Shown here: positions 321 to 56,433 of the stretch, piece after piece
Position numbering within the stretch: the first letter of the stretch is position 1
How the letters are laid out: the number at the start of each line of letters is the position of its first letter
From: Microgenomates group bacterium Gr01-1014_16
Lineage (GTDB): Bacteria; Patescibacteriota; Microgenomatia; CAZETR01; Amesbacteraceae
Reading direction: 5' to 3'
Assembly: GCA_007376345.1 (NCBI GenBank)
Contig: VMGA01000001.1
Span: 61,747-125,746 of the forward strand
DNA: 64,000 bases
The notes under the pieces: generated by a model
Seen by the model: only the letters and a program-made list of their open reading frames with translations
Database searches by the model: none
Told to the model about the DNA's origin: nothing
Made by a program: the position numbers and the translations under genes

Positions 321-340
321 ATTTGGTTTACTATTATTCG

Positions 341-349: not shown

Positions 350-357
350 CCCTTCAA

Positions 358-14551: not shown

Positions 14552-14579
14552 ATTTGGATTATATTATAATCGGAGTTGT

Positions 14580-18130: not shown

Positions 18131-18155
18131 GGCAGATAATTTATAACACTGTTTT

Positions 18156-18560: not shown

Positions 18561-18584
18561 AGTTAATTATATTATAATTAGAGG

Positions 18585-24693: not shown

Positions 24694-24708
24694 AAACGAG
24701 AGGATTAT

Positions 24709-27601
<2,893 letters not shown>

Positions 27602-40395: not shown

Positions 40396-40396
40396 G

Positions 40397-41998
40397 TTAG
40401 TTTGAGACTATTTTAAAGGCTGGGGAGCCGGAAGGGAAATAAATGGTTTTGACGATGTTGACGCCAACGGCTGGGATGTCCTCGGGAGCGGCGACTATGA
40501 GAGTCGAATGGATGTCGCGTACTTTTTCCCAGGGACTGGATTCAAAATGGTATTTGCTGAAATCCCTCACTGTTGAAAAGTTGAATTTATCACGGAATGT
40601 CAGCTGGTGGCGGCCTTGAAACAGTTGGGGAGGATACTTGAGATAGAAGAGAAAGAGAATATAAGGCTGGTCGTATTTGTCGGTAACCCAGATTTTGTCG
40701 TACCGACTTTCATTAGATTGAACGTAAGAAACCAGGTCTTCAAACCCGTATTCCCAGGCGGCCGGGTAGGTTTGGGGGTAGTGGACGTAATACTGATGGA
40801 GATATCTGAATGTCTGCCAGGAATACACAATGACCAATCCGCAAATCCCAATGAGTTTCCAATGTTTCAAGAACCAATACATACCGGCGGATATGACAAT
40901 GGTCATGGGGATAACAATATTTTGGGCGCGGAGGGCGTGGGGGGTTTGGAATGTTAATGCTGAAGCCATTGGAGCGATAAATAACCACAACCAGATAATG
41001 CGAGATTTGAAGAATGAATTATGAATAATGAATAATGCACCGAGGGCGAGAAAGATAAAATCAGTCAAGTAGAATAGTCCGGTTTCGGGGACGCGGTTGC
41101 GTTCGATGAGATCGCCGTTAATGAACAAGAAGTTGCCGTCAAAGTGACTGAGATAGTTTTGTATAAACTGAATGGAGTAAATGACCGGTCGATTGTGGAG
41201 AATTCTCGACAGGGGTGAATTCCAATCGACATGCTGACCGCGAAGTTGTTCAACCCGATGCCAGGGTCCTTCGTCGGCCAGAAAACCGACGCCGGAGAAA
41301 CGGGAAACCGAGTCAGTAGTCAGTAGTGAGTAGGCAATAGGCAATAGTAAGAGAGTTGAGATAGAGATAGAGATTAAAAGCTGTTTTGGATATTTAATAA
41401 AAGTTTTGAAGTAGAGAATAAACAGACCCAGGCCAAGGAGGGGGGCGATGACGCGGGTGGACTGGTAGAAATACATTGATAACGAAAAATTCAAGATACA
41501 AGATACAAGATACAGTGATTTTTTAGATTTCAACCATTTGACGAAAAAGACTACGCCGAGCAGGAGAAGGGTGGTGGAAATGTTGACTTCCCAGGCGCCG
41601 CGGGAAAAATGCAAGTGCCATGGTGACGCTGCGAGCAGCATCGCAGTTATCAGTGCACAGTTTTCAGTTATCAGTTCCCTGACTAAAAGATAAACTAAAT
41701 ATACAGCCAAAACACCAAATAAAGCCGACGGAAGGCGGACGGCGAATTCATTGAGTCCGAAGATTTTTACAACCGGAATCAGTAAATAACTATAGCCGGA
41801 GGGTTTGAAGTCACCGAAGGATTCGAGGTTGACCGGTAAGACGTGTCCGTGTTCGTCCTTGCCGGTTAAAAGTAAAGAATAAGCGTTGTAGCCAAGGGCG
41901 GCTTCATCGGCGTTTAAGCCAGCCGGAAAGGAGGATATTTTATAGAGGCGTAAAACGGCAGCTAACACTAAAATGGCGATGAGCAAGTATTTTTTCAT
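40397..41998 (-). CDS. PMT/ArnT-family (COG1807, GT39/GT83-like) GT-C glycosyltransferase, paralog 1 of 5.
   Basis: The N-terminal stretch MKKYLLIAILVLAAVLRLYKISSFPAGLNADEAALGYNAYSLLLTGKDEHGHVLP carries the conserved first-loop DE motif of PMT/ArnT enzymes. About 11 TM helices, then a C-terminal soluble domain. Several internal heptamer repeats. Confidence 0.7.
   Translation of the reverse strand: MKKYLLIAILVLAAVLRLYKISSFPAGLNADEAALGYNAYSLLLTGKDEHGHVLPVNLESFGDFKPSGYSYLLIPVVKIFGLNEFAVRLPSALFGVLAVYLVYLLVRELITENCALITAMLLAASPWHLHFSRGAWEVNISTTLLLLGVVFFVKWLKSKKSLYLVSCILNFSLSMYFYQSTRVIAPLLGLGLFILYFKTFIKYPKQLLISISISTLLLLPIAYSLLTTDSVSRFSGVGFLADEGPWHRVEQLRGQHVDWNSPLSRILHNRPVIYSIQFIQNYLSHFDGNFLFINGDLIERNRVPETGLFYLTDFIFLALGALFIIHNSFFKSRIIWLWLFIAPMASALTFQTPHALRAQNIVIPMTIVISAGMYWFLKHWKLIGICGLVIVYSWQTFRYLHQYYVHYPQTYPAAWEYGFEDLVSYVQSNESRYDKIWVTDKYDQPYILFLFYLKYPPQLFQGRHQLTFRDKFNFSTVRDFSKYHFESSPWEKVRDIHSTLIVAAPEDIPAVGVNIVKTIYFPSGSPAFKIVSN
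41311..41375. repeat. Degenerate heptamer array (agtcagt agtcagt agtgagt aggcaat aggcaat agtaaga) followed by (gagata)x3, inside the PMT-like paralog 1 coding sequence.
   Basis: Read directly. Six consecutive 7-nt units anchored on AG, then a hexamer run. Confidence 0.7.
41492..41515. repeat. Heptanucleotide tandem repeat, (CAAGATA)x3.4, inside the PMT-like paralog 1 coding sequence.
   Basis: caagata caagata caagata cag. It encodes LYLVSCIL on the minus strand. A further imperfect 7-mer run (agttatc-type) lies at about 41641..41675, and an (atgaata)-type run at about 41013..41037. Confidence 0.75.
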
Positions 41999-43548
41999 TT
42001 CAGTCCCACAATCCGTAACGCCGGTAACCCGTTGGGATATTCGATTTCGCCCAGGCGGACCAAGTTGGGAGGATTCATGTCCTGCTGGGGCAGTTCATAC
42101 TGGTCGCCTACAAAAATCGTGGAGGTGTCCCCTCTCTGGGCCGGCCAGTCAACGCGCATAAATGTGTATTTGTCCAGATTTGTAACCTCGCCGACGTCCC
42201 CGACCGGATTATCAGCACGTTGGGAGCGCGTCCAGAAAAAACCCGGGTCTAACCGGTTGTAAAACAGGATGAAAATATACGGCTGGCCCAGGGTATTGGT
42301 AAAAACAACACGTTTAAAACTGTCGACATTGTTGTTTACCAGCTCAATTACACGCTTGTAAGGAGTTAGCCAATATTGGGAAAAATAAAATGGCGAGTGG
42401 ACAAAGTAGAGATCCGAAAAGTAAACTGTAAACAGTAACAGTAACAGGAAAAATGGATACCGGATAAGTTTAAATTTAAATATTTTACTTAAACCCATTC
42501 CTGAAATAATGACTAAAGGAACGATCATGGGGAGGGAGCGGACACCGGAAATAATGTCGCGGGAAAGTGCGGCGGGAATGGGGGCGAGTAGAAGCCATAC
42601 GAGTAAGATCTTAGATGCTGGATTTTTAGATCTTAGAAGATAATATAGACCGATAAGTAAGGTCAGAATTTCCGGATAGTGGAGATAGCCGTAAAAGGGA
42701 GTAGAATGGCGGGGATTTGACCAGTCTCCATCGATGAACAAAAATCTTGGTGAAAAGTGGTTTAAATATCTTTCGATTATTCCTCGTGTTTGGTCTAGAA
42801 ACTCGGAATGAAACAGTTGATAAATGAGGCGATTGTTCTCGTCCTGACGCAGGATTTTGTTAATTTGTCCAGCAGATCGAACATAACTAAAGACGCTGAA
42901 GACTTTGAGACGGCCGGATTGAGAACCAATGCCAACTATAATGGGTAGTAACAGTAACAACAACAGTAAACCGGGGAAAATAATTTTTTTAATGGCAGGT
43001 CTATAAATTACTAACAAACTGATGAGCAACATTGGGGTGAACATTTTTGCTCCCTGATAGGCCCAGAAAGTAAGACACAAAAAAAGTGCAGAAGTTAAAT
43101 ATTTTTTTTTGATAAATAAAACGACAGCCAAGGTGGTGAGAAGTAAATTTAGGTTTGCCTCCCATGCTCCACGACTAAAATGAATTGCCCAGGGATTAAT
43201 GGCTAAAAGAAAAGGCGCAAAAAGATTTCTTGTTAACAGGTAAACGACCGTTATTAATAACGTCCCAAGTATTGCCGAGGGGAGGCGGGTGGCGAATTCG
43301 TTGAGACCAAGAAGTTTGATTACCGGAACCGCGGAATAGATGTATAGGCCGGGTTTGTAATCACCGAAAGATTTGAAAACAATTGGCAAAACTTGGGCGT
43401 GTTCATCCCGGCCGGTTTTAAGAAGTGAGAAGGCATTATACCCAAGCGCCGCTTCATCCCAGGTAAGTCCCAACGGCCTGACATCCAGTTTATATACACG
43501 CAAAACAAAACCTATCAAAACAATCGCTAATAATAATATCTTTTTCAC
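41995..43548 (-). CDS. PMT/ArnT-family GT-C glycosyltransferase, paralog 2 of 5.
   Basis: MKKILLLAIVLIGFVLRVYKLDVRPLGLTWDEAALGYNAFSLLKTGRDEHAQVLP has the same DE-loop architecture. It overlaps the downstream paralog by 4 nt. Confidence 0.7.
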   Translation of the reverse strand: MKKILLLAIVLIGFVLRVYKLDVRPLGLTWDEAALGYNAFSLLKTGRDEHAQVLPIVFKSFGDYKPGLYIYSAVPVIKLLGLNEFATRLPSAILGTLLITVVYLLTRNLFAPFLLAINPWAIHFSRGAWEANLNLLLTTLAVVLFIKKKYLTSALFLCLTFWAYQGAKMFTPMLLISLLVIYRPAIKKIIFPGLLLLLLLLPIIVGIGSQSGRLKVFSVFSYVRSAGQINKILRQDENNRLIYQLFHSEFLDQTRGIIERYLNHFSPRFLFIDGDWSNPRHSTPFYGYLHYPEILTLLIGLYYLLRSKNPASKILLVWLLLAPIPAALSRDIISGVRSLPMIVPLVIISGMGLSKIFKFKLIRYPFFLLLLLFTVYFSDLYFVHSPFYFSQYWLTPYKRVIELVNNNVDSFKRVVFTNTLGQPYIFILFYNRLDPGFFWTRSQRADNPVGDVGEVTNLDKYTFMRVDWPAQRGDTSTIFVGDQYELPQQDMNPPNLVRLGEIEYPNGLPALRIVGLK

Positions 43549-45065
43549 AGTTCTTTAATATAAAACGCAGGTTTGGAGTCGAGGAAGTTGATTTGGGTAA
43601 GTAATGTCCCGGGTGAGGGATTGTCGGGGCTGGAGATGACTAAGTATTTTTGACCGGGGAGCAATGCGGCGATGACAATAGGCATTTCCCAATCATTAAC
43701 AAACTTTATTTTTTCTAATCGGTTAACCCAGTACCAGTCGGCGTGATAATCCCAGCGTTTTGATTTTTGAAAATCGGCCGGGTCCCAAGGCCAATAAAAG
43801 GCGATGAATTCGTGTGGTTCGGCATAGCGTTTGGTAAAAATAATCTCATCGTATTTCGAGTAGTTGTCCATAACATATTTGACCGTTTCTTTGTAGCCGT
43901 ACTGCCAGGACCAGGAGTAGTTTGTTCGGTAATTAAAAGCGACTGGATTTAGATAATAGTCTAAACTTAATAATAAAAGCAGAATAAATATTATTCTTGT
44001 GTTCTTGAGAACTTGAGAACAGCGGTTCAGACCGTAGGCGGTAATAAGAATGACGGCAGGAAGCATTGTAATTGCGCGAAGGGTGTGGGGAGCGTCACGG
44101 GTTAAGCTACCCGCAATTGGAGCGAGTATCAGCCAAAGAAGAATCACTTTGTGTTTAAATATTTTAAGAAACCCTATGTAGAAAAACGGGAGACAAATAA
44201 GATAAAGAAGGCCGAAGCCGGGGATGTTGAACTGGTATTGGGAACCCCCGTTTATAAATAAAAACCGGGGATTAAAGTGATTGAGATAATTGGTTGTGAA
44301 GCGATAGGCCAAATAGGTGGCTTTGTTGTAGACAAAGCGGCCGCCGGGACGTTGACGCAGTTGGTTGATTTGGGCGATGGCTCCCTCGTCCAATAAGGTT
44401 AACCATTTATATCTGGCTTGGCCGGAAGGCGAGAGAAGCTGTATCAGAACCGGAATAAATAGAATAAAGAATAAAGAATAAAGAATAATGTTGGTTTTTG
44501 TGCGATATATTAAAAAATAAGCCACAATAAATAACGGTGCAAAAATACGGAACGAATTATATGTCCAGGCGGAAAGCAAAACATAAATTATTCCCAGCGA
44601 TAATTTGCGATATAGAAGAAGCGTGACGCCAAGAGTGAACAAAAATATCCCCAGGTTGGCTTCGACAGCGACACGGGACAGAAATAAAGACCAGGGGGAA
44701 ATTGCAGCCAAGAGTGCGGATGTTAGCGGCGGAGCGGAAAGTTTCCGGGAAAGCGCGTAAACTAAAAATATTAGAAGGGTTCCGGCCATAATTGAAGGAA
44801 AGCGGACGGATAACGCGTTTAGGCCGAGGACGGCCACGAAAGGAACGTCGGCATAAATATAGCCCGGGAGCTTGAAGTCGCCGAAGGCGCGAAAAATGGC
44901 CGGAAGCACTGTCCCCCACTCGTCCCGGCCGGTTTTAAGAAGCGAATAGGCGTTGTAGCCCAAAGAGACTTCGTCCCAATTCAGGCTGGGGGGGAAATCG
45001 GTAATAAAAGCCGCTCTTAAGGCAAATCCGAATAATATTATGAGGAACAAATATTTAAGATTCAT
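43545..45065 (-). CDS. PMT/ArnT-family GT-C glycosyltransferase, paralog 3 of 5.
   Basis: MNLKYLFLIILFGFALRAAFITDFPPSLNWDEVSLGYNAYSLLKTGRDEWGTVLP. Contains an internal heptamer repeat. Confidence 0.7.
   Translation of the reverse strand: MNLKYLFLIILFGFALRAAFITDFPPSLNWDEVSLGYNAYSLLKTGRDEWGTVLPAIFRAFGDFKLPGYIYADVPFVAVLGLNALSVRFPSIMAGTLLIFLVYALSRKLSAPPLTSALLAAISPWSLFLSRVAVEANLGIFLFTLGVTLLLYRKLSLGIIYVLLSAWTYNSFRIFAPLFIVAYFLIYRTKTNIILYSLFFILFIPVLIQLLSPSGQARYKWLTLLDEGAIAQINQLRQRPGGRFVYNKATYLAYRFTTNYLNHFNPRFLFINGGSQYQFNIPGFGLLYLICLPFFYIGFLKIFKHKVILLWLILAPIAGSLTRDAPHTLRAITMLPAVILITAYGLNRCSQVLKNTRIIFILLLLLSLDYYLNPVAFNYRTNYSWSWQYGYKETVKYVMDNYSKYDEIIFTKRYAEPHEFIAFYWPWDPADFQKSKRWDYHADWYWVNRLEKIKFVNDWEMPIVIAALLPGQKYLVISSPDNPSPGTLLTQINFLDSKPAFYIKEL
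44453..44489. repeat. Heptanucleotide tandem repeat, (GAATAAA)x5 with one 2-nt interruption, inside the PMT-like paralog 3 coding sequence.
   Basis: gaataaa ta gaataaa gaataaa gaataaa gaataat. It encodes IILYSLFFILF on the minus strand. Confidence 0.75.
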
Positions 45066-46572
45066 AGCGCAGCCTAAATAAGATCCAACTGATAACGCCC
45101 AATAAAGTTATTCCTGACGTGATGTTGCCTAGCGTGCGGACAAAAGTATCTTTGAAAATCAGTTCGATAGTATGCTCACCCGGGGTGGTGTTAAGGGTGA
45201 TTAAACCCAATGGTCCACTGGGAAACACAGCAGTTTCTATGCCATCGACAAGGCTGGTCCAGCCCGGAAAGTAAACAATCGGGTATGTGGTTGAACCGTC
45301 CTCATTGCGAACGGGTTGATTAGGAGCAAAGTCTGCAGGTAACTGGGGGGCAGTTTTGGGCCAGTAGTCAGAGAGGGCGGAGGAACGCTGTTCGTCCCAT
45401 AATTTGCCAGAGAAGTATTGATTGTCGTTGAGATTCAACCAGATATCGGGTTTGAAAAAACCGATATTGATTATGATTAGTAGTAAAACGACTGGGATTT
45501 GAATATTTTTGGTAAAGACGGTAATTGCACCAGCTGATAATGATAAAAATAATGTTGACATGGAGAGGAAGCGCCAGGGGAATTGGACAAAGGGCAAGCC
45601 GAGGATGGTTTTCCAAAAAATCTCGGATTTACCGTGAGTTAAGAATAAAGCAATAAAGCCAAGAGCGATAAAAAAAAGTAAAGGGGTTCTTCGGCTGCGC
45701 CTCAGAATGACAACGACAGCAAGAATAATAGCGACTATCCAATGTAAATGTCCGGCGGAGAAACTCATGGTGTCGTTGGGACCCCAGGTGGAGCCGCCGT
45801 AACCCCAGAAATTTGAAATGAATAATTGCCTAAGAGTTGTCCAGTGAAGACTATAGTTATAATAATCGGCGGTGATCTGGTTGAGAGAAACTAACTTGCT
45901 TTCGAAAATTACGGGTAAGAGATAAAAAGATCCCAAAATGAGAGATAGCAATCCGGCTGGGATAAATTTCCAATCGCGACTACGAACAAACCACCAAAAG
46001 CCCAAAAATGGCATAAACATAAATAAGGATAAGTTGTGGGTGATGAGTAGTGCGGCTAAGAGCAAAGAAAATATGATGTATTTCTTTTTTTCGATAGATA
46101 ATAAAATGAGCGGGAAGAAGATAAAGGCCAGGGCTTCGGGCAGGGCTCCCCTCACCCAGACATCGACTGCCCGGTAAGGCGCGTAAACGTAAAACAGGGC
46201 ACTAACAAACGCGCCTTTTTCTCCCCAAAACTGTTTGGATAAAAAATACATTGAGATCCCGGAGAGGACTAATGAGAGGATGAAGACGGATTTGACGCTG
46301 GTCAGAACTGAAAAACCGGAAAGCCGGAATATTGTTCCAAGCCAGTAGGGAAACTGGCCGTAGAAATTAAATAGCGGTTCGCCATAGCCTATACCGGCGT
46401 CGGGGGCCCAACGGCAAGGTAAAACTTTTGCGGCTACGCATTTATCGAATTCAAATTGGCGAAAGACATGAAAATCGTGCATGGTATATATCCCCGGCCG
46501 GAGCATAAGTGCAAATGCCGGAATGATTAGAAGAATTAAGAGGAGGATTTTTTTGGCCATAGTTTTACCCAA
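45055..46572 (-). CDS. YfhO-like polytopic membrane glycosyltransferase (GT-C; the teichoic-acid/glycolipid sugar transferase family).
   Basis: The N-terminal loop MHDFHVFRQFEF...PDAGIGYGEPLFNFYGQFPYW resembles the YfhO DGFHQYVIF...G motif region. About 12 TM helices plus a C-terminal soluble domain. The assignment is tentative. Confidence 0.45.
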   Translation of the reverse strand: MGKTMAKKILLLILLIIPAFALMLRPGIYTMHDFHVFRQFEFDKCVAAKVLPCRWAPDAGIGYGEPLFNFYGQFPYWLGTIFRLSGFSVLTSVKSVFILSLVLSGISMYFLSKQFWGEKGAFVSALFYVYAPYRAVDVWVRGALPEALAFIFFPLILLSIEKKKYIIFSLLLAALLITHNLSLFMFMPFLGFWWFVRSRDWKFIPAGLLSLILGSFYLLPVIFESKLVSLNQITADYYNYSLHWTTLRQLFISNFWGYGGSTWGPNDTMSFSAGHLHWIVAIILAVVVILRRSRRTPLLFFIALGFIALFLTHGKSEIFWKTILGLPFVQFPWRFLSMSTLFLSLSAGAITVFTKNIQIPVVLLLIIINIGFFKPDIWLNLNDNQYFSGKLWDEQRSSALSDYWPKTAPQLPADFAPNQPVRNEDGSTTYPIVYFPGWTSLVDGIETAVFPSGPLGLITLNTTPGEHTIELIFKDTFVRTLGNITSGITLLGVISWILFRLRYES

Positions 46573-47768
46573 GTAAATAAGTTAATAACGCTTAATGTTT
46601 TGGTGAGCAGCGGAGTGTAGAGGGAAATGAAAAAGAGCATGGTGGGGGCGAACCACATATTGTATTGGTTGGCTAAGAAAGTGAAGGATAGAACCACGTA
46701 CTGGACCCAGATTTTGCGGCCGGTGACAAGTAGCCAAGATAGTAGAGGGAAGAGCGGGTACATGTATCGCTCGTGCATGCGGATGGAAAAAAGAAAAAAG
46801 CCAAAATAAACAATGAGCATTTGGTTGACCAGGTTTTGTTCGGATGGATTTTTCCAAATAGATCGAAGACAAACTATAAATAATAATATGACTAGAATAA
46901 TTGAAACTATATTGGCCGGAATGCCCAAAAATAGCGATGTGTCAGGCACCTGATCGATTGGGAAAAAGATGTGCCAGAAATTGAAAGCGTTGACGGTGAT
47001 AAATGGCGATTCGCCCGGTAAAATCCGCTCAAAATATAATCTGGTCAACCAGATAGGGAGATCTAACCGGGGATGGAACGGGGCAAACCAAAGCAGTGAT
47101 GAAATTCCGACGGAGAGGGGAAAGAGCCAGAAGTTTTTGGGGAATTTGCGAATTGCGTATATTAGAAAAACTATGAGGGCAGGAGACCAGGAAGCCTTAG
47201 TGATTAAAGAGGTTCCAAGTAACACGCCAGAAAGAATGAGCCGTTTTTCGAATAGAAAAATCAGGCTCCAAATGGCTAGCGCAGCCACTATACAATCGTT
47301 TTGACCCCAGAGAGAAGAGTTGTACCATAACGGAGGATTTAGTAAGTAAGCCAAGCCAACGATTTTTGATAATTTGGTGAATTTACCGATTCTCAAGATG
47401 GCAAAAAAGAGAGCCAGATCGCCAATGACTGAAGGCAGTTTGAGACTGACCACGTCGCCCCATCTTTGCCACCACCAAACTACAGATGAGGGAAAAAATG
47501 GGATTTTGAGATTTAGTTGCCAGAAGGCTTTATTGCCAAAGTCGTTGAGAAGATATGAAAAAGTGTAAAGATAGACGCTGCCGGCAGGTTGGTTGGGACG
47601 GCTCTGCGGCCAAAAAACGGATCTGGGTAATTCATAAAAATCCACAATACCGTGTTTGACGGCATTGCCAGCCCAGTTCCAGCCATTGTGTAAGTCACCA
47701 TGTTTGGTGTACGTCGTCACCCATAATCTAAAAATTACTAATAGAACTATTAAAATTTTATATTTCAT
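46536..47768 (-). CDS. Polytopic membrane protein, 410 aa, likely GT-C-like. Unknown family.
   Basis: A hydrophobic multi-helix protein with a W-rich extracytoplasmic loop (VVWWWQRWGD). No diagnostic motif. Confidence 0.4.
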   Translation of the reverse strand: MKYKILIVLLVIFRLWVTTYTKHGDLHNGWNWAGNAVKHGIVDFYELPRSVFWPQSRPNQPAGSVYLYTFSYLLNDFGNKAFWQLNLKIPFFPSSVVWWWQRWGDVVSLKLPSVIGDLALFFAILRIGKFTKLSKIVGLAYLLNPPLWYNSSLWGQNDCIVAALAIWSLIFLFEKRLILSGVLLGTSLITKASWSPALIVFLIYAIRKFPKNFWLFPLSVGISSLLWFAPFHPRLDLPIWLTRLYFERILPGESPFITVNAFNFWHIFFPIDQVPDTSLFLGIPANIVSIILVILLFIVCLRSIWKNPSEQNLVNQMLIVYFGFFLFSIRMHERYMYPLFPLLSWLLVTGRKIWVQYVVLSFTFLANQYNMWFAPTMLFFISLYTPLLTKTLSVINLFTWVKLWPKKSSS

Positions 47769-48696: not shown

Positions 48697-48708
48697 AAAT
48701 TATTATTT

Positions 48709-48760
48709 CTAATACTAGGTAGTATTGTAATAATTACCATACTCTGTAGTATGGTAATTA
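48709..48760. promoter_or_regulatory. Palindromic element family, copies 2 (type A, 48709..48731) and 3 (type B, 48731..48760), abutting each other between the PEP-utilising gene stop and the ribokinase start.
   Basis: Type A is ctaatacta-gg-tagtattgtaat. Type B is taattaccatact-ctgt-agtatggtaatta, with 13-nt perfect arms. On the minus strand type A reads TTACAA-17nt-AATAAT followed 5 nt later by the ATG, which is promoter-like. Confidence 0.5.
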
Positions 48761-49078
48761 CAGAACTTGGATTGTTCCTTTAGTACCATTGACTTCAATT
48801 TTAATCCCTGACTTAAGTAACTTGGTCGCATTTGGAACTCCGACGACGGCGGGAATGCCATACTCTCTGGCTACGATTGCAGCGTGGGACAGTTGGCCGC
48901 CTATTTCGGTTACAATCGCTTTAGCAGCCATAAAAATCGGTGTCCAGGCCGGAGATGTTTGTTTTGTAACGAGAATTTCTCCTGATTTAAACGCTTGGAG
49001 GTGATGTTGGTCGATGATGACTCTAGCTACGCCGGTAATCACTCCCACGGATCCTGGAATTCCTTTTATGATAATCAT
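48758..49078 (-). CDS. Stand-alone PEP-utilising-enzyme mobile (phosphohistidine swivel) domain protein.
   Basis: GGQLSHAAIVAREYGIPAVVGV matches the PEP-utilisers signature (TSHAAI..RE.GIP.VVG). 106 aa. Overlaps the upstream gene in an ATGA. Confidence 0.75.
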   Translation of the reverse strand: MIIIKGIPGSVGVITGVARVIIDQHHLQAFKSGEILVTKQTSPAWTPIFMAAKAIVTEIGGQLSHAAIVAREYGIPAVVGVPNATKLLKSGIKIEVNGTKGTIQVL

Positions 49079-50169
49079 GCTTCGATACTAAATTGGGGCT
49101 CTATTAACAATTGTTTGTAATAAGTTTGTTTTCTTTCATTGATAATTTTTTGTAGTGATTCTTTGGAGAATTTGTTACTAACTACTTCTTCCAGTTCTTT
49201 CATAGTTATGTAGAATATATCGTTTTTGTCTTGTGGGAAGTTTGCTTTTAACTTAATTGAAAATAAAATTTTCCTCATAATGCTGTTCCCCTGATAATAA
49301 AATGGGCGGGAATTTCTGATCTGTGAGTAATTTTGAGCTTGATTTAAGATCCATTCAAATAGTCGGATGCGGAATCTTGCGTTTTGTTTCACAAACTTTT
49401 CTCTGTTTATTCTTTTTTCATTAGTTAGCATTAATTTTAGTTTGGGATTGAGAGTTTCCCGATACAATTTTAAATATGAATTCAACAACTCTGTTTCCTC
49501 TCCAAGAGTGGGGTATATCAAGTCTTTGTCTTGAATTCTATATCCGTATTTTTCGATCCATTTTCCAAGCTGTAATTGTTTTTTCTGTTCGTCACTTATT
49601 TGGGCTACTTCCCATAATTGGGTGTCCATATCTATTCCTTTGTCAGGATATCCCAACAGGAGTTCACGATAGTTATTGTTGTCAGAGTCTTTTACAAATA
49701 GTGGATAACTGTATTTAAAGAGAAGTTCGGTGATGCCGCAAACGACTCCCACGTACAGCGACTCTGAAAAAAACCAGCTTTCTAATTCACCTGTCTTTTT
49801 GAAGAGCTCTAACAGTTTTTTTACCGAAAGTTCATTTAAACTTAGTTTGTTTAACTTATTAATTTCTTTCTGATATTCCGGTAAAACTTTGGTTATCCAT
49901 CGTTTGCTGGAAATATCGATTTCGGTCTTAATTCTTTTGGGTAATTGCAGAGTCCCTAATTGTAAAAAAAGTTTCCAGTATTCGTCGCTGAAATAAAGAT
50001 AGCCGTCGATGATTGACCAATATTTATCCGGCAGTTTTAGTCCGAGCCTTTCTGATATTAAACTGCCTGATTTGTTAATCTGAAGAGGAAGAAGAAATGA
50101 TTCTTCCAGAGGAGAAATAGGCTTATGGAGCCATTCAAACTGATTAAAGAATTTTCTTGTCCATCTCAT
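49075..50169 (-). CDS. Hypothetical protein, 364 aa. Probably the N-terminal (nucleotide/substrate-binding) partner of the downstream PEP-utilising swivel domain, i.e. a split phosphotransferase.
   Basis: Translationally coupled to the swivel-domain gene by a 4-nt overlap. K/E-rich, no TM segments. No motif recognised by eye. Confidence 0.4.
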   Translation of the reverse strand: MRWTRKFFNQFEWLHKPISPLEESFLLPLQINKSGSLISERLGLKLPDKYWSIIDGYLYFSDEYWKLFLQLGTLQLPKRIKTEIDISSKRWITKVLPEYQKEINKLNKLSLNELSVKKLLELFKKTGELESWFFSESLYVGVVCGITELLFKYSYPLFVKDSDNNNYRELLLGYPDKGIDMDTQLWEVAQISDEQKKQLQLGKWIEKYGYRIQDKDLIYPTLGEETELLNSYLKLYRETLNPKLKLMLTNEKRINREKFVKQNARFRIRLFEWILNQAQNYSQIRNSRPFYYQGNSIMRKILFSIKLKANFPQDKNDIFYITMKELEEVVSNKFSKESLQKIINERKQTYYKQLLIEPQFSIEA

Positions 50170-50180
50170 AAATTTTTATT

Positions 50181-50204
50181 TCTCATACTCTGTAGTATGG
50201 TAGT
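50181..50204. promoter_or_regulatory. Palindromic element family, copy 4 (type-B-like), 12-15 nt upstream of the start codon at 50169.
   Basis: ctcatact-ctgt-agtatggtag. The downstream flank (agtatgagaaataaaaatttATG) aligns with the flank at the ribokinase start (agtattagaaataataatttATG). Confidence 0.45.
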
Positions 50205-50608
50205 TAAATTGAATTCCATATTTTTGTTAGTTCTTTTTTGGCAGTATTAAATTTAATGCACCATAAATAATAATAGGAAGAAAGATATTTGGCTCTTTTT
50301 TCGATTTCAAATTTTTCTCCGTGTATTTTTCTAACCTTCATTTCTGCTTTGATTGCTGCCAGTTCTTCATTTAGACGAAAAGTGTTCGAACACCAATAAT
50401 TGAGAGGGTATTTAATATTGCCGTATGAACTGGATCTCTTAATATGGGTTATTTCGTGTTCAAGTAGAGAAATTGTTATGGGTTTAGGATTCGGATTTTG
50501 AAAATCTTGATATATATCTCGGCGGAGATATATTTTTCCTAGAAAGGCGGATCCCCGGAACAAATTAAGAGGGCTCATGTGTACTTGTAATCCTTTGTAT
50601 GAATTCAT
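50204..50608 (-). CDS. Small hypothetical protein with an HExxH motif (possible zinc-metallopeptidase-like fold).
   Basis: LLEHEITHIKR contains HEITH. 134 aa. No TM segments. Confidence 0.35.
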   Translation of the reverse strand: MNSYKGLQVHMSPLNLFRGSAFLGKIYLRRDIYQDFQNPNPKPITISLLEHEITHIKRSSSYGNIKYPLNYWCSNTFRLNEELAAIKAEMKVRKIHGEKFEIEKRAKYLSSYYYLWCIKFNTAKKELTKIWNSI

Positions 50609-50609
50609 A

Positions 50610-52115
50610 TTACTTGGGATTGATTTCGGCGAAGCGGGTGTCGCCTAGGTCAAATAAAATGTGCTGGCTGGAGGGGAAATCGCCGAAACTGCTAATTAGT
50701 AAGGCATTTTGGAGTTTACTTTCGCGTTCCCAGTGAAAATCATGGAATTCGTATTTGCCTAGGTTCCAGCTTTCCAGCTGGTCCACGTATAGTTTGTCCG
50801 CTTTGACATAACGAATCCAATCCTGGGTGTGTTTTTGATAATCTAGGGGGTCCCATTTGGAATAAAACGCGACAAAGATGTGCGGTACGGAAAAGACACG
50901 GGAAAAGTGGATGGTGTCATATTTAGAGTTGATGGCAATCGCCTTGGTAAAAACTTCTTTGTAGTTAACGCGCTGGCTATAAATGGGGTTTTTTGGCAGT
51001 TTGATCAGATATGTTTGAACTAATAATATGAATGAGACGAGAATAACCGGAATGAGTACTTTGTAGTACCGGGAGAGAGCAGCCAGGCCGTAGGCGGAAA
51101 GCAGAACCGTCAAGGGAAAAATGGTAATAGCCCGTTGAGAATTAGAACTTTCGGTCAATGCAGCCGGGATTGGTGCGAGTAGTAACCAGATCAATAAATA
51201 AGAAAACTGCTTGTGACGGATCAAAAGAATCGCACCGATAGCAATAAAAATAATTTCTACTGGGTAGTGCAGCGGAGTCCCGGGAAAATTGAGGTGGGAG
51301 AAATCAGGACGATGACCGGTAAAGTAAAAGCCAGGTGAAAAGTAAGATAGATAATTTGTGAAAAATTGATCAGCATAAAATATATATTTATTATCAAAAA
51401 GAGTCGGAGGAGATTTTCGATTACTAAGATAACTTAAAGTATTGGCGGCAGAAAAGATGCCGACGTCACTGGCACGTTTGAGAACAGATTTATAATTAAT
51501 AACTATCGGCAGCAAAGCCAGGGCAAAAATTAATAAAACAGGCTTGAAAAATTTTTGACGAATGACTAATGCGACAATAAATAAAATGGTGAATATACGC
51601 CACGAGTGATACGAGTAGAGATTAACTCCCCAAGTTAAGAATGCCCAGTTGTAGCGCTTTTTTAAGAATAGATATAGTCCAAGTGGGAAAAGAAGTATGC
51701 CCAAGCCTCCTTCCCATGCATTTCTGGATAATTGCATGTGCCAGGGGGAAATGGTCAGCAAAAACGCAGATATTAGTGCGATTTTTTCGGGAAAAAGTTC
51801 TTTTGCTAGAAGATAAAGAATTAGTATGGATAAAGTCCCGATTATGGCAGTTGGAAGACGAACGGCGAATTCGTTTAGACCGAAGATGGCTATTGTAGGA
51901 ATGGCGGTGTACATATAGAGAGGAGGTTTGAAGTCGCCAAAGCCGCGGGGAAAGAGAGGTAAAAATTGACCCCAACTATCACGGCCAGTTTTGAGAATCG
52001 AGTAGGCATCGTAACCCTGGCCGGCTTCATCGGCAGTAAATCCAGCCGGAAATTTATCCAGCCATACAACGCGCAAAATTAATCCCAAAAAAAGAATTAA
52101 ATATAAGCGTTTCAT
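50610..52115 (-). CDS. PMT/ArnT-family GT-C glycosyltransferase, paralog 4 of 5.
   Basis: MKRLYLILFLGLILRVVWLDKFPAGFTADEAGQGYDAYSILKTGRDSWGQFLP. Confidence 0.7.
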   Translation of the reverse strand: MKRLYLILFLGLILRVVWLDKFPAGFTADEAGQGYDAYSILKTGRDSWGQFLPLFPRGFGDFKPPLYMYTAIPTIAIFGLNEFAVRLPTAIIGTLSILILYLLAKELFPEKIALISAFLLTISPWHMQLSRNAWEGGLGILLFPLGLYLFLKKRYNWAFLTWGVNLYSYHSWRIFTILFIVALVIRQKFFKPVLLIFALALLPIVINYKSVLKRASDVGIFSAANTLSYLSNRKSPPTLFDNKYIFYADQFFTNYLSYFSPGFYFTGHRPDFSHLNFPGTPLHYPVEIIFIAIGAILLIRHKQFSYLLIWLLLAPIPAALTESSNSQRAITIFPLTVLLSAYGLAALSRYYKVLIPVILVSFILLVQTYLIKLPKNPIYSQRVNYKEVFTKAIAINSKYDTIHFSRVFSVPHIFVAFYSKWDPLDYQKHTQDWIRYVKADKLYVDQLESWNLGKYEFHDFHWERESKLQNALLISSFGDFPSSQHILFDLGDTRFAEINPK

Positions 52116-53677
52116 TATTTTGTGAGTATGAAGTAAAGCGGCAATCCGGTAGGAGACGAAATAATTTGATCGATGTTTACACCACCAACTGTACCTGTGC
52201 CGACTTCATCACGGACACTGGCCAAATAGGCCTCTCCAGGCTGAAGTAGATCTCTAAATCCAGTTTCGGCGATTTTGTTTTTCAGAGTGCCGAAATAGTA
52301 TTTGCCAATACTGAATCCGTCGAATCCTGCTGCAGGCGTTGAATCACGAAGTGGATATTGGCTTTGAAAAGTAGCCGGGTCATAGGCATACCAAAACAGA
52401 AATCGGGAAAGTGTAAACTCGTAAGTATTATTGAAATATACCCGGGTGAGAACAGGGTCAAGGGATTTGAGATGAGTCATGGCAGTTTTGTAGCCCGGCT
52501 GCCAGAAACGCCAGCCATCAATAGTCCATTCCGAGTAATACCGGTATAGATAAAAACTGAAGTTGAATACTGCAAACGCGGAAAGTGCAAAAAAAAGAAT
52601 TTTCCGATTCCACAGAGCATTAATACCGGCGGCGGAAAGAAGAATAAGGGGGGGGAGCATGACGATGAGGCGGCCGGCGTGGTTGCCACCATCTTTGGTC
52701 AGGGCAGAGGCTAATGGAGCAATCAGTAGCCATAATATTATTTTTTTGTTTTTGAAGACAAAGAGACCGGTAATTATGGTTATTGCTTCAAAAATATAAA
52801 GCATGCCCATGCTGCCAACGGAGTGACGCAAAACCGGATCGCCGCCAAAAAATAAAAACTCGGTGGAGAAAGATTTAAGATAATTGTTTAAAATTTCCTG
52901 GGGATAGTAAACATATCTGTTACGAAATATCCGAGTAATAAAAGAGGGTTTTTGAATCCGACGAAGAGTTAAATCATCGCGTAATGTAGAGTCTGAAAAC
53001 ACAGAAATTTGGGAAAATCTTTTTGAGGCCACTTGCTGACTAAGGCCATAAATAAACGGTAGTAATAAAATAATTGCTAAAATTGACGGGGTAATTATTT
53101 TTTTGAACGAAGGTCTAAGAACAAGTATTAGTAAAGGAATGAATACTGTAGCTACAGAGTAGGAATAAAAAGAGAGAGCGAAGGCCAGGGCGGAAAAAAC
53201 GTAGCGTTTACGCAAAAAAAGAGTCACACCAACAGTGGACAATAAAACTATAGCCAAATTGTCGTTGGACCAGCGGGAGAACTGGATATGCCAGGGAGAG
53301 ATGGCTGTCAGAATTGCTGCTATTAAACCCAGGCGAGACCCTCCAAATTGATAGCCCAAAACAAAAATGGCTAAGATTGAGAGCAAGGATAGAATGACAA
53401 GAGGAAGACGGACTGTCCACTCATTAAGACCGAAGACGGTAAAGGGGACTGTCAGATAGTGAAGAAGGGGCAAGCGATACTCAGAGAAGGATTGGAGGAA
53501 AACGGGCAGGGGGTGGCCTAGATAGTCACGGCCGGTTTTATAGAGAGAGTGAGCCTGGATGCCGACGTCGATCTCGTCTCCGGTCAGCTCGACCGGAAGG
53601 GAATTGAGACGGTAAAGTCTCAAAATTGAGGCTACGGCCAAAATGACCAGGAGCAAAACCCAGGGTCGCCGAAACAT
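52115..53677 (-). CDS. PMT/ArnT-family GT-C glycosyltransferase, paralog 5 of 5.
   Basis: LLLVILAVASILRLYRLNSLPVELTGDEIDVGIQAHSLYKTGRDYLGHPLP. Shares a 1-nt junction with paralog 4. Confidence 0.7.
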   Translation of the reverse strand: MFRRPWVLLLVILAVASILRLYRLNSLPVELTGDEIDVGIQAHSLYKTGRDYLGHPLPVFLQSFSEYRLPLLHYLTVPFTVFGLNEWTVRLPLVILSLLSILAIFVLGYQFGGSRLGLIAAILTAISPWHIQFSRWSNDNLAIVLLSTVGVTLFLRKRYVFSALAFALSFYSYSVATVFIPLLILVLRPSFKKIITPSILAIILLLPFIYGLSQQVASKRFSQISVFSDSTLRDDLTLRRIQKPSFITRIFRNRYVYYPQEILNNYLKSFSTEFLFFGGDPVLRHSVGSMGMLYIFEAITIITGLFVFKNKKIILWLLIAPLASALTKDGGNHAGRLIVMLPPLILLSAAGINALWNRKILFFALSAFAVFNFSFYLYRYYSEWTIDGWRFWQPGYKTAMTHLKSLDPVLTRVYFNNTYEFTLSRFLFWYAYDPATFQSQYPLRDSTPAAGFDGFSIGKYYFGTLKNKIAETGFRDLLQPGEAYLASVRDEVGTGTVGGVNIDQIISSPTGLPLYFILTK

Positions 53678-53679
53678 GG

Positions 53680-55488
53680 CTATATTCTATCCTGAACCCA
53701 GCGTTCATGCCAGAAGCTGAAGGCAAAGACCATCCAGAGCGTGCGAAGACGCTTTTTGGCGAACAGTGAATCGACAAATTGAGTGGGGAAATAATCCCGA
53801 ATAGCAGATCGGTAAACATAAGATTTGACCAAATTTGAGAGTGGACCGGAAATCCAGTCCGCCAGGGGTAATCCAAAGCCTTTTTTGGGTCGGCGCCGGA
53901 TGTTTTCAGGTAACTTATCTTTTAATAAGTTACGCAAAGGGAGTTTGGTTTCAAATAACGAAGTGAAACTTTCGTGGCGGGTAAAAGCGTAGGAAATAAT
54001 ATCCCGATCCAGATAAGGCACACGGACTTCCAGGCTGTTGAACATAGATGACCGGTCGGATTTCAAGAGCATGGCGTCGCGCATATAGGTTTGAAAATCG
54101 ATTAACTGGGCGGTTTTGACCGAGTCTGCTGGATAATTGGAAAAAAGCAATTCTTTGATGGGAGATGTTTGGAAAAAATGGGGAGGGGCGAGTTGGCCGG
54201 TGGTGAAATAGACCATCCATTGTAATTGGCGGCGGGTGGGAGAAAGACCCAAGCCGGAAATAAAATTTGCTAAAGTGTCGCCAAATTTGTAGCTAGATGA
54301 AAAAAGAGGCAACTTTATCGGTGGTAAATTGTGGGATAGTGAAGAAAGTTCTCTGGGGACAAACGGCAGATAGTTGGCAAAACGATGGCCTAAATAAGTG
54401 GGATAGCCGGCAAAAATTTCATCTCCGCCGTCGCCGGACAGAGCAACTTTGACGTGCTGACTAGCAAGTTGGTCTACGTGGTAGGTGGGAAAAAGGGACG
54501 GATCGGCAAACGGCTGATCCATAAGTTTTTGAATACGTGGAAAATCTGAAAGAAAGTCGGTGGCAGAGTAGGATTTGTCAAAGTGATGAGTGCCTAAGAT
54601 TTTAGAGACTTGGGCGGCGTGATGACCTTCATTGTAATCGGCATTGGCAAAAGAAATAGAAAAACTCTTGACATCGTGGTTTTGGCGCTTTAAATAATAC
54701 GCTAAGATAGATGAATCCAATCCCCCTGAAAGCAGTAAGCCAACAGGAACATCGGCGATGGCTTGACGAGCAACGACGGTGTCCAGTAATTCATCCAGAT
54801 TATCTGTTCCTGCATACGACTGCGAAAATAAGTCGTAATACTGATGGATTTTTAGACCGGCTTTTGAGAAAGTTAACGTATGGCCAGGGGGAAGCTGATA
54901 AATGTCTTTATAAATAGTTTTTGGGGTAGGGACATAGCCTAGATATGAATATAAGAATAAAGAATCAGGATCGATTTGGGGAGTGGGAATAATAGATAGA
55001 ATTGTTTTTATTTCAGAACCGAATATTATTTTTGAACCGGAGTGATAATAAAATAACGGCTTGATTCCGGCGTGGTCGCGGGCTAGCAGCAGTCTTTGAT
55101 TTTTTTCGTCCCAGAGAGCTAGGGCGAACATGCCGTTTAATTTTTTGAGAAAATCTTTGCCTGAATCTTCATAGAGATGAACTATCGTTTCGGTGTCCGA
55201 TGTTGTTTTTAAGGCGTGGCCTTTTTGATATAGTTGTTCCCGGATGTGTTTGTAGTTGTAAATTTCCCCGTTGAAAATGACAGTTAAAGATCCATCTTCG
55301 TTGCTGATAGGCTGGTCGCCGGTGACCAGATCGATAATTTTCAAACGGCGGATGCCCAGACCGACGTAATTTTTAACAAAATGTCCACCTGAGTCCGGCC
55401 CGCGATGAATAATTTGGTGAGTCATTTTCTCAATCTGAGATACTTTTACTCTAGATCCAAAATCGACAATTCCGGCTATTCCGCACAT
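53680..55488 (-). CDS. Asparagine synthase (glutamine-hydrolysing)-family amidotransferase, AsnB-like. In this context probably a sugar or glycan amidotransferase.
   Basis: N-terminal MCGIAGIV is the class-II glutamine amidotransferase nucleophile Cys. LLSGGLDSS is the PP-loop ATP pyrophosphatase motif. Length is 602 aa. Confidence 0.8.
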   Translation of the reverse strand: MCGIAGIVDFGSRVKVSQIEKMTHQIIHRGPDSGGHFVKNYVGLGIRRLKIIDLVTGDQPISNEDGSLTVIFNGEIYNYKHIREQLYQKGHALKTTSDTETIVHLYEDSGKDFLKKLNGMFALALWDEKNQRLLLARDHAGIKPLFYYHSGSKIIFGSEIKTILSIIPTPQIDPDSLFLYSYLGYVPTPKTIYKDIYQLPPGHTLTFSKAGLKIHQYYDLFSQSYAGTDNLDELLDTVVARQAIADVPVGLLLSGGLDSSILAYYLKRQNHDVKSFSISFANADYNEGHHAAQVSKILGTHHFDKSYSATDFLSDFPRIQKLMDQPFADPSLFPTYHVDQLASQHVKVALSGDGGDEIFAGYPTYLGHRFANYLPFVPRELSSLSHNLPPIKLPLFSSSYKFGDTLANFISGLGLSPTRRQLQWMVYFTTGQLAPPHFFQTSPIKELLFSNYPADSVKTAQLIDFQTYMRDAMLLKSDRSSMFNSLEVRVPYLDRDIISYAFTRHESFTSLFETKLPLRNLLKDKLPENIRRRPKKGFGLPLADWISGPLSNLVKSYVYRSAIRDYFPTQFVDSLFAKKRLRTLWMVFAFSFWHERWVQDRI

Positions 55489-55491
55489 GTT

Positions 55492-56433
55492 TTATAAATT
55501 CTTGACTTCTTTAATTTCGTAAATGGGTTTTTGGCGGGATTCGAAGTAGACGCGAACCATGAGCTCGGACATGAGGCCTAAAAGAATAAACGATACGCCG
55601 ATGAAGACCAGAAACATAGCTATAATAAACATGGGGTTGTTGTGGACATAGATGCCAAGCCAAATTTTACGATAGACAACCTGGGCAAAAGCGGGAACAG
55701 AAAGAGCCAGGGAGACGAGGCCGCCGGTACCGAAAATATAGGCCGGCTTAGTGGAGTAGGAATCCAGAAATTTTGTGGTAATAATATCGATAATGGTTTT
55801 AACTGAACGGGAATAACCATATTTGGATTTACCATGGGCGCGGGGACGGTGGTTGACTGCTATTTCTTTATATTTGGCTCCGCGAAGGACAATGAGCAAA
55901 GAAAGAAGACGGTGATTTTCGCCGTAAAGGCGCATGTTAGCCAGCAAATCCCTACGGACAATACGAATGGAACAACCCAGATCTTTAATTGTGACATGAA
56001 AGATGATCCGGATGAGCCAGTTGGCGATTTTGGAGACGACGACGCGGATCAGATCATCATGTCGGTTTTTGCGCCAGCCAAACACGGCGTCGGTATTGGC
56101 GTCAATCAGATTGAACATCGGTAGCAAGTCAGAGGGAGGATTTTGACCGTCGGCATCAAGAAAGGCGACTAAGTCCCCATGGCTATTATCTATTCCTGCT
56201 GATGTGGCCGCAGTTTGGCCGGTATTTCGCCAGAAACGAATAAGTTTGACGGTAATGTTGGGGTGAGAGGAAGTAGAAATAGAAGAGTTGTCCGTGCTGC
56301 CGTCGTCGATATAGATTACCTCTGTCTGGTCTGATATTTTGGAAAGGGTTTCGCAGAGTTCCGCGTGGAGACGGGGAAGACTTTCGGCTTCGTTTTTGAA
56401 GGGAATAATGACTGAAAGTTTGGGATTGGCCAT
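55492..56433 (-). CDS. GtrB/ArnC/DPM1-like polyprenyl-phosphate sugar synthase (GT2 with two C-terminal TM helices).
   Basis: LSVIIPFKNEAESLPRL...VIYIDDGSTDNS...AFLDADGQNP is the GT2 core. The C-terminus has two hydrophobic helices (AYIFGTGGLVSLALSVPAFAQVVY and FIIAMFLVFIGVSFILLGLMSEL), as in GtrB/ArnC. Confidence 0.7.
   Translation of the reverse strand: MANPKLSVIIPFKNEAESLPRLHAELCETLSKISDQTEVIYIDDGSTDNSSISTSSHPNITVKLIRFWRNTGQTAATSAGIDNSHGDLVAFLDADGQNPPSDLLPMFNLIDANTDAVFGWRKNRHDDLIRVVVSKIANWLIRIIFHVTIKDLGCSIRIVRRDLLANMRLYGENHRLLSLLIVLRGAKYKEIAVNHRPRAHGKSKYGYSRSVKTIIDIITTKFLDSYSTKPAYIFGTGGLVSLALSVPAFAQVVYRKIWLGIYVHNNPMFIIAMFLVFIGVSFILLGLMSELMVRVYFESRQKPIYEIKEVKNL

Follow-up and report, generated by a model that had tools for sequence, protein, structure and literature searches.

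The 64-kb stretch of DNA analysed here (the window; positions 61,747 to 125,746 of contig VMGA01000001.1) comes from a bacterium of the Microgenomates, within the candidate phyla radiation (CPR), and carries an array of membrane glycosyltransferase (GT) genes that is the subject of this work. CPR bacteria, or Patescibacteria, are abundant, mostly uncultivated, have very small genomes and live attached to other cells, so that their surface chemistry is central to their biology. The host of the array, an uncultivated groundwater organism with a small genome, is close to Amesbacteria, and the orthologs of protein A of the array (56-81% identity) come mostly from Candidatus Amesbacteria. Almost the entire window is given over to glycan biosynthesis. 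Glycosyltransferases make up 27 of its 61 open reading frames (ORFs; 12 GT2, six GT4, one GT9 and at least eight enzymes of the GT-C fold), and there are also many epimerases and dehydratases, DegT, RmlD, a nucleotidyltransferase, and FkbM and other methyltransferases.

The array occupies 37105-56433, and all of its ORFs lie on the minus strand; those named in the original prediction, made from the letters alone, have exactly the coordinates given there. Its genes are listed here together with three donor-side genes found elsewhere in the window. Conservation was assessed across nine related CPR loci; L003 denotes Amesbacteria RIFCSPLOWO2_01_FULL_49_25, L083 and L085 more distant Amesbacteria, L090 Daviesbacteria and L091 Woesebacteria. 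Percentages are identities, and the two modules are defined below.

37105-38280, minus strand: PIG-V (GT76)-like GT-C, end of module 1; Mannosyl_trans2 33.8 bits against a gathering score of 22.4
38229-39242, minus strand: GT4 of module 1; Glycos_transf_1 94 bits; orthologs 60-73%
39215-39991, minus strand: GT2 of module 1, directly downstream of A; GT2 93 bits; orthologs 65-71% in L003, L083 and L085
39988-40395, minus strand: NUDIX hydrolase between A and the conserved GT2; NUDIX 65 bits; not at this position in L003, L083 or L085
40397-41998, minus strand: GT-C paralog A, the paralog modelled; PMT_2 52.4 bits
41995-43548, minus strand: GT-C paralog B; blastp E 6e-80 to A; orthologs 58-61%
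43545-45065, minus strand: GT-C paralog C; 35-37% identical to A and H (E 1e-77 to 1e-80); orthologs 43-66%
45055-46572, minus strand: GT-C D (PF10131 PTPS_related family, YfhO clan), first gene of module 1
46536-47768, minus strand: GT-C E (ALG6/ALG8- and GT87-like), last gene of module 2; Alg6_Alg8 26.8 bits against 25; GT87 21.9 bits
47758-50608, minus strand: inserted cassette of a PfkB kinase (168 bits), a PEP-utilizers mobile-domain protein (96 bits), F and G
50610-52115, minus strand: GT-C paralog H (PMT_2/ArnT-type); PMT_2 47.4 bits; orthologs 77% in L003, about 37% in L083, L085 and L091
52115-53677, minus strand: GT-C paralog I (PMT_2/ArnT-type); PMT_2 30.8 bits; orthologs 73% in L003, 52% in L089, 38% in L091
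53680-55488, minus strand: AsnB-family glutamine amidotransferase, next gene after the ArnC-like GT2; Asn_synthase 253 bits, GATase_7 157 bits
55492-56433, minus strand: candidate polyprenyl-phosphate sugar synthase of ArnC/GtrB type (GT2), first gene of module 2; Pfam GT2 86 bits
30809-31621, minus strand: second candidate polyprenyl-phosphate sugar synthase, a short DPMS/PpgS-like GT2 without transmembrane (TM) helices
18156-18560, minus strand: GtrA-family small membrane protein, candidate lipid-sugar flippase, 22 kb from the array; GtrA_DPMS_TM 64 bits
58114-58740, minus strand: DedA, set between two conserved GT2 genes; VTT 61.3 bits against a gathering score of 33.9

Neighbouring genes between 37105 and 56433 are spaced by -52 to +3 bp, save for two gaps of 61 and 34 bp that both fall inside 47758-50608, and the whole reads as a single operon-like string of genes. 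The 4-bp and 11-bp gene overlaps indicate that the genes of the array are co-expressed. Eight GT-C genes lie between 37105 and 53677 (A, B, C, D, E, H, I and the PIG-V-like gene), the last named having been overlooked in the original prediction.

Five of these GT-Cs, A, B, C, H and I, which stand in two blocks, align over their full length with 30-37% identity (blastp E 1e-47 to 1e-80), a similarity far above chance that makes them unambiguous paralogs. As had been proposed, they share an invariant D-E pair in the first loop: D31 and E32 (A numbering) follow TM1 within the motif LxxDEAxxGYNAYSL and do not vary in the five paralogs or their orthologs, and D48 is just as constant across the five paralogs and 19 sequences from their orthogroups. 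These 19 sequences of five orthogroups share 22 invariant residues, of which eight lie in external loop 1; all five paralogs therefore look catalytically competent. The MKK N-terminus and homology suggest that the catalytic D-E loop faces outward.

The assignment of these paralogs to the PMT/ArnT family stood up in part. A, H and I score above the gathering threshold of Pfam PMT_2 (PF13231, 26.1 bits), whereas B and C have no Pfam match at E ≤ 0.01, and C none even at E ≤ 5, yet these two are 33-37% identical to A and H. We rejected PMT proper (GT39) because no paralog matches a MIR domain, because A alone passes PF02366 (29.8 bits against a gathering score of 22.7; H reaches 19.4, below it, and the others give no match) and because the C-terminal domain is an alpha/beta domain of 120 residues. 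An identity as ArnT (GT83) transferases of 4-amino-4-deoxy-L-arabinose (Ara4N) to lipid A was also set aside, as neither a specific relationship to ArnT nor the context of an Arn operon was found. A profile of the five paralogs matched PDB sequences only marginally (AglB at E 0.004, ArnT at E 0.007). Since sequence alone cannot place this family, structure modelling was needed. A model of A built with 72 homologs (predicted local distance difference test 89.8, predicted template modelling score 0.90) was compared by Foldseek and gave ArnT as the top match (E 9e-9), followed by AglB, STT3 and PglB. Its fold matches catalytic GT-Cs across about 390 residues, with AftA, AftB, AftD, EmbA/EmbC and PimE among the structural matches, and combines a TM core with an alpha/beta domain of about 120 residues at the C-terminus, as in enzymes of the size of ArnT. 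The model thus predicts GT-C enzymes of ArnT-like size and layout and offers no specific placement among PMT, ArnT and oligosaccharyltransferase (OST).

The multi-TM GT-C fold was found for D as well as for A. D, which has an invariant D33, has its best Pfam match in PF10131 at 17 bits (gathering score 26.4). It had been described as YfhO-like and belongs to the YfhO clan, but the protein itself has no YfhO match (PF09586), and that domain occurs in a minority of its homologs, most of which carry PF10131. E, previously left without a family, is ALG6/ALG8-like. Its orthologs are 83% identical in L003, 33% in L091, where the gene comes right after the orthologs of I and H, and 26% in L089.

On the donor side, the GT2 at 55492-56433 bears out the earlier description of a GtrB/ArnC-like protein. 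It aligns with ArnC (PDB 9bhc) at E 7e-40 over its full length (query residues 5-310 on target residues 9-313) and with GtrB (5eke) at E 3e-27; its LDADG is aligned on the LDADL of ArnC, forming a DAD motif, and two hydrophobic helices follow at the C-terminus (about 229-253 and 266-296). The protein thus combines a GT2 domain with DXD, a C-terminal pair of TM helices and full-length alignment to this enzyme type, and we consider it a candidate lipid-sugar synthase of ArnC/GtrB type. The NCBIfam ArnC profile covers residues 7-311 of 316 with 164 bits (cutoff 529), PgfS scores 120-121 bits (cutoff 500) and AglJ 65 bits (cutoff 325); all of these cutoffs are missed widely, and the protein does not score as an equivalog of ArnC, PgfS or AglJ.

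The adjoining gene is AsnB, as predicted: it scores 437 bits on TIGR01536 (cutoff 267) and begins MCGIAG with the catalytic Cys2 present. Against eps_aminotran_1 (TIGR03108) it reaches 441 bits, below the cutoff of 817, and is matched over residues 1-368 alone. AsnB-family proteins such as WbpS and WbqG form uronamide sugars in glycan pathways (PMC7468200), and this precedent suggests that AsnB amidates the sugar of the adjacent synthase; it is the gene context that suggests a WbpS-like function here.

The original prediction had counted a single lipid-sugar synthase, a count that is not supported. The GT2 at 30809-31621 has its best NCBIfam matches in PgfS, PpgS, ArnC and a dolichyl-phosphate (Dol-P)-hexose transferase, all below cutoff, and matches DPMS (5mlz, E 1e-12) and GtrB (E 7e-10) in the PDB. 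Its orthologs (49-50%) stand beside the array in L083 and L085, where the ArnC-like gene is missing from the locus. Two further GT2 proteins, 5667-6692, which has two C-terminal TM helices, and 29802-30806, were rejected as GtrB-like synthases because their PDB matches are generic GT2 or TarS-like proteins.

Comparison of related genomes divides the array into two conserved modules. In L003 the order is X, GT2, GT2, GT2 (plus strand), GtrB-like, AsnB, I, H, E, D, C, B, A, GT2, GT4, PIG-V-like, with identities of 53-83%, and there is no counterpart of 47758-50608, the NUDIX gene or DedA. L083 and L085 keep an H-D-C-B-A-GT2-GT4-PIG-V-like block in which each gene is nearest to its positional counterpart (A 59-68%, B 58-60%, C 43-55%, D 53-54%, H about 37%); the orthologs of the PIG-V-like gene in L003, L083 and L085 are 53-58% identical. 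In a neighbour-joining tree of 33 family members, the paralogs fall into five orthogroups, each made up of the window gene and its orthologs from L003, L083 and, where present, L085. Each orthogroup has one member per genome, and the order is kept across three Amesbacteria lineages at 37-77% identity. The tree topology thus places the origin of the five orthogroups before the divergence of these Amesbacteria, and the array appears ancient and fixed. A second assembly of the same population (L002, L087) encodes identical proteins.

Furthermore, the synthase and AsnB travel together. Daviesbacteria and Woesebacteria have homologs of the ArnC-like GT2 with about 50% identity, and orthologs (51-82%) with an adjoining AsnB are found in L003, L089, L090 and L091; AsnB is the very next gene in all three Daviesbacteria and Woesebacteria neighbourhoods of the GT2 that were examined. 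The order in L091 is GtrB-like, AsnB, NUDIX/HAD, I (38%, E 1e-115), H (37%, E 1e-98), E (33%), which keeps that of the window, and in L089 it is GtrB-like, AsnB, an I ortholog (52%), E-like, Y-like, a 183-aa protein, H-like. Going by these homologies, GtrB-like/AsnB/I/H/E form an ancient module 2 found across Microgenomates, and D/C/B/A/GT2/GT4/PIG-V-like a module 1 conserved in Amesbacteria. The linkage of the synthase to I, H and E across Microgenomates classes upholds the general logic proposed earlier, in which a GtrB/ArnC-type enzyme loads polyprenyl phosphate and a GT-C transfers the sugar outside. The proposal that the locus encodes a complete three-component pathway fared less well: GtrA and DedA have the identities assigned to them, but GtrA is 22 kb away and neither has a counterpart in any of eight related loci, so these two are not conserved parts of the system, in which synthase and GT-Cs are the co-inherited elements.

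We read the array as an extracytoplasmic glycosylation line of eight non-redundant GT-Cs that carry out fixed steps on one surface glycoconjugate, and would put the probability of this at roughly 0.55. The ArnC/GtrB-type GT2 would load a sugar onto polyprenyl phosphate at the cytoplasmic face, and the DPMS-like GT2 probably does so too. The co-inherited AsnB would modify the sugar or its precursor, most simply by turning a carboxyl group into an amide, as WbpS does on uronic acids. The lipid-linked monosaccharides would then be flipped to the outer face, where each GT-C may add a sugar at its own position, in its own linkage or from its own donor to one conserved glycoconjugate, which could be a wall- or lipid-linked polysaccharide or a protein. 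That the GT-Cs draw on polyprenyl-phosphate sugars is suggested by their genetic linkage to the synthase. One-to-one orthology and the origin of the orthogroups before the Amesbacteria divergence point to fixed, non-redundant roles of the paralogs, and together with the retained catalytic loop, the tight operon, the co-inheritance of the synthase and the presence of four GT-C families they are best accommodated by a fixed multi-step line.

Several observations weigh against such a line. We recognised neither a priming phosphoglycosyltransferase nor Wzx/Wzy or an ABC exporter in the 61 ORFs of the window, which leaves a lipid-linked polymer acceptor unaccounted for within it. Sites invariant within but different between orthogroups, which would mark paralog-specific functions, number just two among the 19 sequences and are uninformative. 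AsnB also passes the model of the housekeeping asparagine synthase, there is no UDP (uridine diphosphate)-sugar dehydrogenase in the window to supply it with a uronic acid, and the motif of the GT2 at 30809 is D-A-N rather than D-X-D. Some plasticity exists, too: the orthologs of H and I have diverged far more than those of A and B, the L083 locus lacks E, GtrB and AsnB, and additional paralogs occur in L085. In addition, the data fit a polysaccharide acceptor and a protein acceptor alike.

A serious rival, which we nonetheless consider clearly less probable, is protein O-glycosylation of the PgfS/PgfM1 or GtrB/PgtC2 kind, in which the PMT_2-type paralogs would transfer single sugars from polyprenyl-phosphate sugars onto Ser/Thr-rich regions of different proteins, secreted or membrane-bound, such as pilins, S-layer proteins or wall enzymes, and might work as hetero-oligomers like Pmt1-Pmt2. 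The streptococcal PgfS/PgfM1 and GtrB/PgtC2 systems pair a GtrB-type synthase with GT-Cs (10.1101/2024.05.05.592596), the synthase of the array does match the PgfS model, at 120 bits, O-glycosylated CPR pilins have been predicted in a study that terms CPR glycosylation unexplored (PMC11623550), and tandem overlapping genes would suit stoichiometric complexes. However, the lack of a MIR domain and the small alpha/beta C-terminal domain, as in enzymes of ArnT size, do not favour it, and no Ser/Thr-rich acceptor candidate was found among the unassigned soluble proteins of the window. The ALG6-like, PIG-V-like and PF10131 GT-Cs and the 19 Leloir-type GTs alongside the paralogs suggest instead that an oligo- or polysaccharide is built.

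The combinatorial use of the paralogs that the original prediction favoured, or a variable paralog content, with strain-to-strain antigenic or phage-receptor variation as the outcome, seems to us unlikely, and it fits the same observations less well than a fixed line. Peripheral indels speak for it (the restriction of the PfkB cassette, NUDIX and DedA to this lineage, the absences from the L083 locus, the two added divergent paralogs and the AAA_14/DUF4143 insertions of L085), as does the faster evolution of H and I compared with A and B. Each paralog nevertheless has a single counterpart per related Amesbacteria genome in a kept order, the GtrB-AsnB-I-H-E order is retained as far as Woesebacteria, the second assembly of the population shows no difference in its proteins, and no repeats, invertible elements or phase-variation signatures turned up, although no dedicated search was made for them. 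Less probable still is that some paralogs have no catalytic role and act instead in association with a flippase, in the manner of archaeal Agl23, or as scaffolds or chaperones of the one GT-C that is active. TIGR03663 (Agl23) is indeed the best NCBIfam match of four of the five paralogs, over the N-terminal 120-190 residues, but its scores of 31-53 bits stay far under the cutoff of 126, all paralogs and orthologs retain the D-E loop together with the 22 invariant residues, and the fold matches that of catalytic GT-Cs over about 390 residues; we therefore rejected this role as the principal explanation.

A fixed line of this kind shares features with several known systems. Like the three-component Gtr system of O-antigen glucosylation (GtrA/GtrB/GtrC) and related three-component systems such as the GT136 pentofuranose ones (PMC11127046), it links a GtrB-homologous GT2 to GT-Cs with an outward acidic loop, and a GtrA-family protein is also present in the island; unlike them, it links one synthase to three GT-Cs of two families (I, H and E) and to an obligatory AsnB, has five further GT-Cs in the same operon, has no GtrC homolog among its GT-Cs, does not keep GtrA with the array and belongs to a CPR bacterium rather than an enterobacterium or its phage. 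As regards the Arn pathway of lipid A aminoarabinosylation, ArnC is the closest solved homolog of the synthase and the name given to it by NCBI, ArnT resembles A in size and in its TM core with a small C-terminal external domain, and a sugar-modifying enzyme is linked to the lipid-sugar step in both (ArnD there, AsnB here). In contrast, the array lacks ArnA, ArnB, ArnD, ArnE and ArnF and has five to seven paralogs where the Arn pathway has a single ArnT, the equivalog cutoffs are missed by far, and lipid A is an unlikely acceptor. The streptococcal Pgf (PgfS/PgfM1/PgfE/PgfM2) and GtrB/PgtC2 systems likewise place a GtrB-type synthase and two PMT_2-like GT-Cs in an operon of a monoderm-type bacterium, whereas the array has many more GT-Cs, of four families, has AsnB in place of the epimerase partner, has no identified protein acceptor and falls short of the PgfS cutoff.

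In its logic the line also resembles the mycobacterial GT-C sets (embC-embA-embB, AftA-D, PimE and other enzymes dependent on polyprenyl-phosphate mannose or arabinose), in which non-redundant paralogs, some in tandem, each perform one extracytoplasmic step of a wall glycopolymer that is assembled from polyprenyl-phosphate monosaccharides. There is no close sequence relationship to these, however; the enzymes of the array are about 500 aa long compared with about 1,100, the donor synthase is of GT2 rather than UbiA type, and no arabinogalactan or lipoarabinomannan (LAM) genes are present. In the lumen of the eukaryotic endoplasmic reticulum (ER), ALG3/9/12/6/8/10 and the glycosylphosphatidylinositol (GPI) mannosyltransferases, too, belong to several GT-C families (ALG6-like, PIG-V-like and, by fold, ALG12-like members occur here) and use Dol-P-sugars from a DPMS-type GT2. 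This resemblance is one of logic only, as the array is clustered in a bacterial operon and is accompanied neither by an OST nor by a pathway for lipid-linked oligosaccharides.

The enzyme families and the principle of lipid-sugar donors for GT-Cs are established. In the literature on CPR, Patescibacteria and Amesbacteria glycosylation we found no description of a GT-C operon, of the two-module structure or of the pairing of synthase and AsnB, and a Saccharibacteria study terms glycosylation processes in CPR unexplored (PMC11623550). Novelty thus appears to lie in the presence, in a reduced CPR genome, of a conserved operon with seven or eight GT-C genes, in the two-module structure of this operon and in the invariant pairing of an ArnC-like synthase with AsnB. 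The abundance of PMT-like paralogs, which had been called unusual, is not: of the nine related CPR loci examined, eight have between two and five PMT_2-type genes in a stretch of about 20 kb (seven of these have at least three; L005, L008 and L013, for example, have clusters of three or four), the A/B/C/H/I family comprises 5,941 clusters at 50% identity (E ≤ 1e-30), and similar GT-C arrays are common in Microgenomates. The finding extends current understanding and does not overturn it. Module 2 (the ArnC-like GT2, AsnB, two PMT_2-type GT-Cs and the ALG6-like GT-C) offers a compact unit for heterologous reconstitution and a marker with which to survey envelope glycan types in CPR genomes.

A more far-reaching proposal, which we regard as speculative and rather doubtful, is that the ArnC-like synthase and the invariably adjacent AsnB form a hitherto unrecognised two-enzyme unit for an amidated polyprenyl-phosphate sugar, with amidation taking place on the lipid-linked sugar or just before loading, and that the principal envelope glycopolymer of Microgenomates is built largely outside the membrane by a fixed series of small GT-Cs. 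If true, this would be a CPR counterpart of mycobacterial arabinan and mannan assembly or of glycan extension in the ER lumen; it would explain the very large share of glycosylation genes in these reduced genomes and supply a surface for episymbiotic attachment.

The array forms the core of an island of surface-glycan genes, at least 80 kb long, that extends past both ends of the window. Just past window position 64000 lie two more full-length members of the A/B/C/H/I family (524 and 496 aa), which brings the number of such paralogs on the contig to at least seven. These and the other neighbouring features are:

2936-3682, minus strand: FkbM-family methyltransferase
3673-5667, minus strand: S, multi-TM protein without family match
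14517-16340: R, multi-TM protein without family match
18585-19430, plus strand: FkbM-family methyltransferase
21242-22783: Q, multi-TM protein without family match
23317-24756, minus strand: methyltransferase-GT2 fusion
56449-57324, plus strand; 57263-58042, minus strand; 58737-59513, minus strand: three GT2 genes upstream of the array; orthologs 49-80% in L003 and L083
59531-61027, minus strand: X, multi-TM protein; blastp to H E 2e-4; orthologs 83% in L003, 47% in L089
61014-62168: Y, multi-TM protein without family match
L087 1561-3135 and 3354-4844 (same population as the window): the two extra paralogs, both with the first-loop DE motif kept

The methyltransferase-GT2 fusion and the FkbM genes suggest O-methylated sugars in the product. 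X is possibly a very divergent relative of the five paralogs, judging from its blastp match to H. In profile and HHalign comparisons none of X, Y, Q, R and S matched the profiles of A and D more than weakly, X, whose weak matches are colinear, coming out best at P 0.004, and none of these five has a Pfam match even at E ≤ 5; Z (31650-33392) has no match among PDB sequences. S (664 aa) overlaps the GT2 at 5667-6692 by 1 bp, and an S-like protein of 899 aa (31%, E 8e-62) lies two genes upstream of GtrB-AsnB in Daviesbacteria (L090 2911-5610). S and this GT2, which has no specific similarity to GtrB or DPMS, may be another pair of synthase and GT-C.

The cassette at 47758-50608 encodes, besides the PfkB kinase, a PEP-utilizers mobile (swivel) domain protein of 106 aa, F (49075-50169, 364 aa) and G (134 aa); F and G have no Pfam or PDB match. 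Its guanine-cytosine content is 0.377, compared with about 0.43 in the flanks, it is missing from L003, where H abuts E, and it has no homologs in eight related loci. The absence from L003 and the low content indicate that it was inserted into what had been an unbroken ancestral run of seven GT-C genes, and the cassette may be a phosphotransfer module acquired by this lineage. Judging by the related loci, GtrA, DedA, NUDIX and the cassette are all lineage-specific additions. A member of the DedA family, UptA, recycles polyprenyl phosphate (UndP; 10.1101/2022.02.03.479048), and by analogy DedA would do the same here. A NUDIX-HAD fusion directly follows AsnB in Woesebacteria (L091 10832-11899), and the association of NUDIX with the module could be a recurrent one, perhaps for nucleotide-sugar housekeeping.

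GT9 enzymes are normally tied to the core of lipopolysaccharide. At the other end of the window (340-2949) this CPR bacterium has heptose-type genes, namely a PfkB kinase, a GT9 'heptosyltransferase' and a SIS_2 isomerase, and a CTP_transf_like/HAD protein lies beside this set just outside the window (L088 12628-13656). In L085, the AAA_14/DUF4143 ATPase genes (15063-16379 and 17555-18820) stand between the conserved GT4 and the PIG-V-like gene. Finally, three bins labelled 'uncultured Gammaproteobacteria' (L004, L013 and L039) contain E-like genes and PMT_2-type arrays that cluster with CPR in the tree, and these bins may be mislabelled or chimeric.

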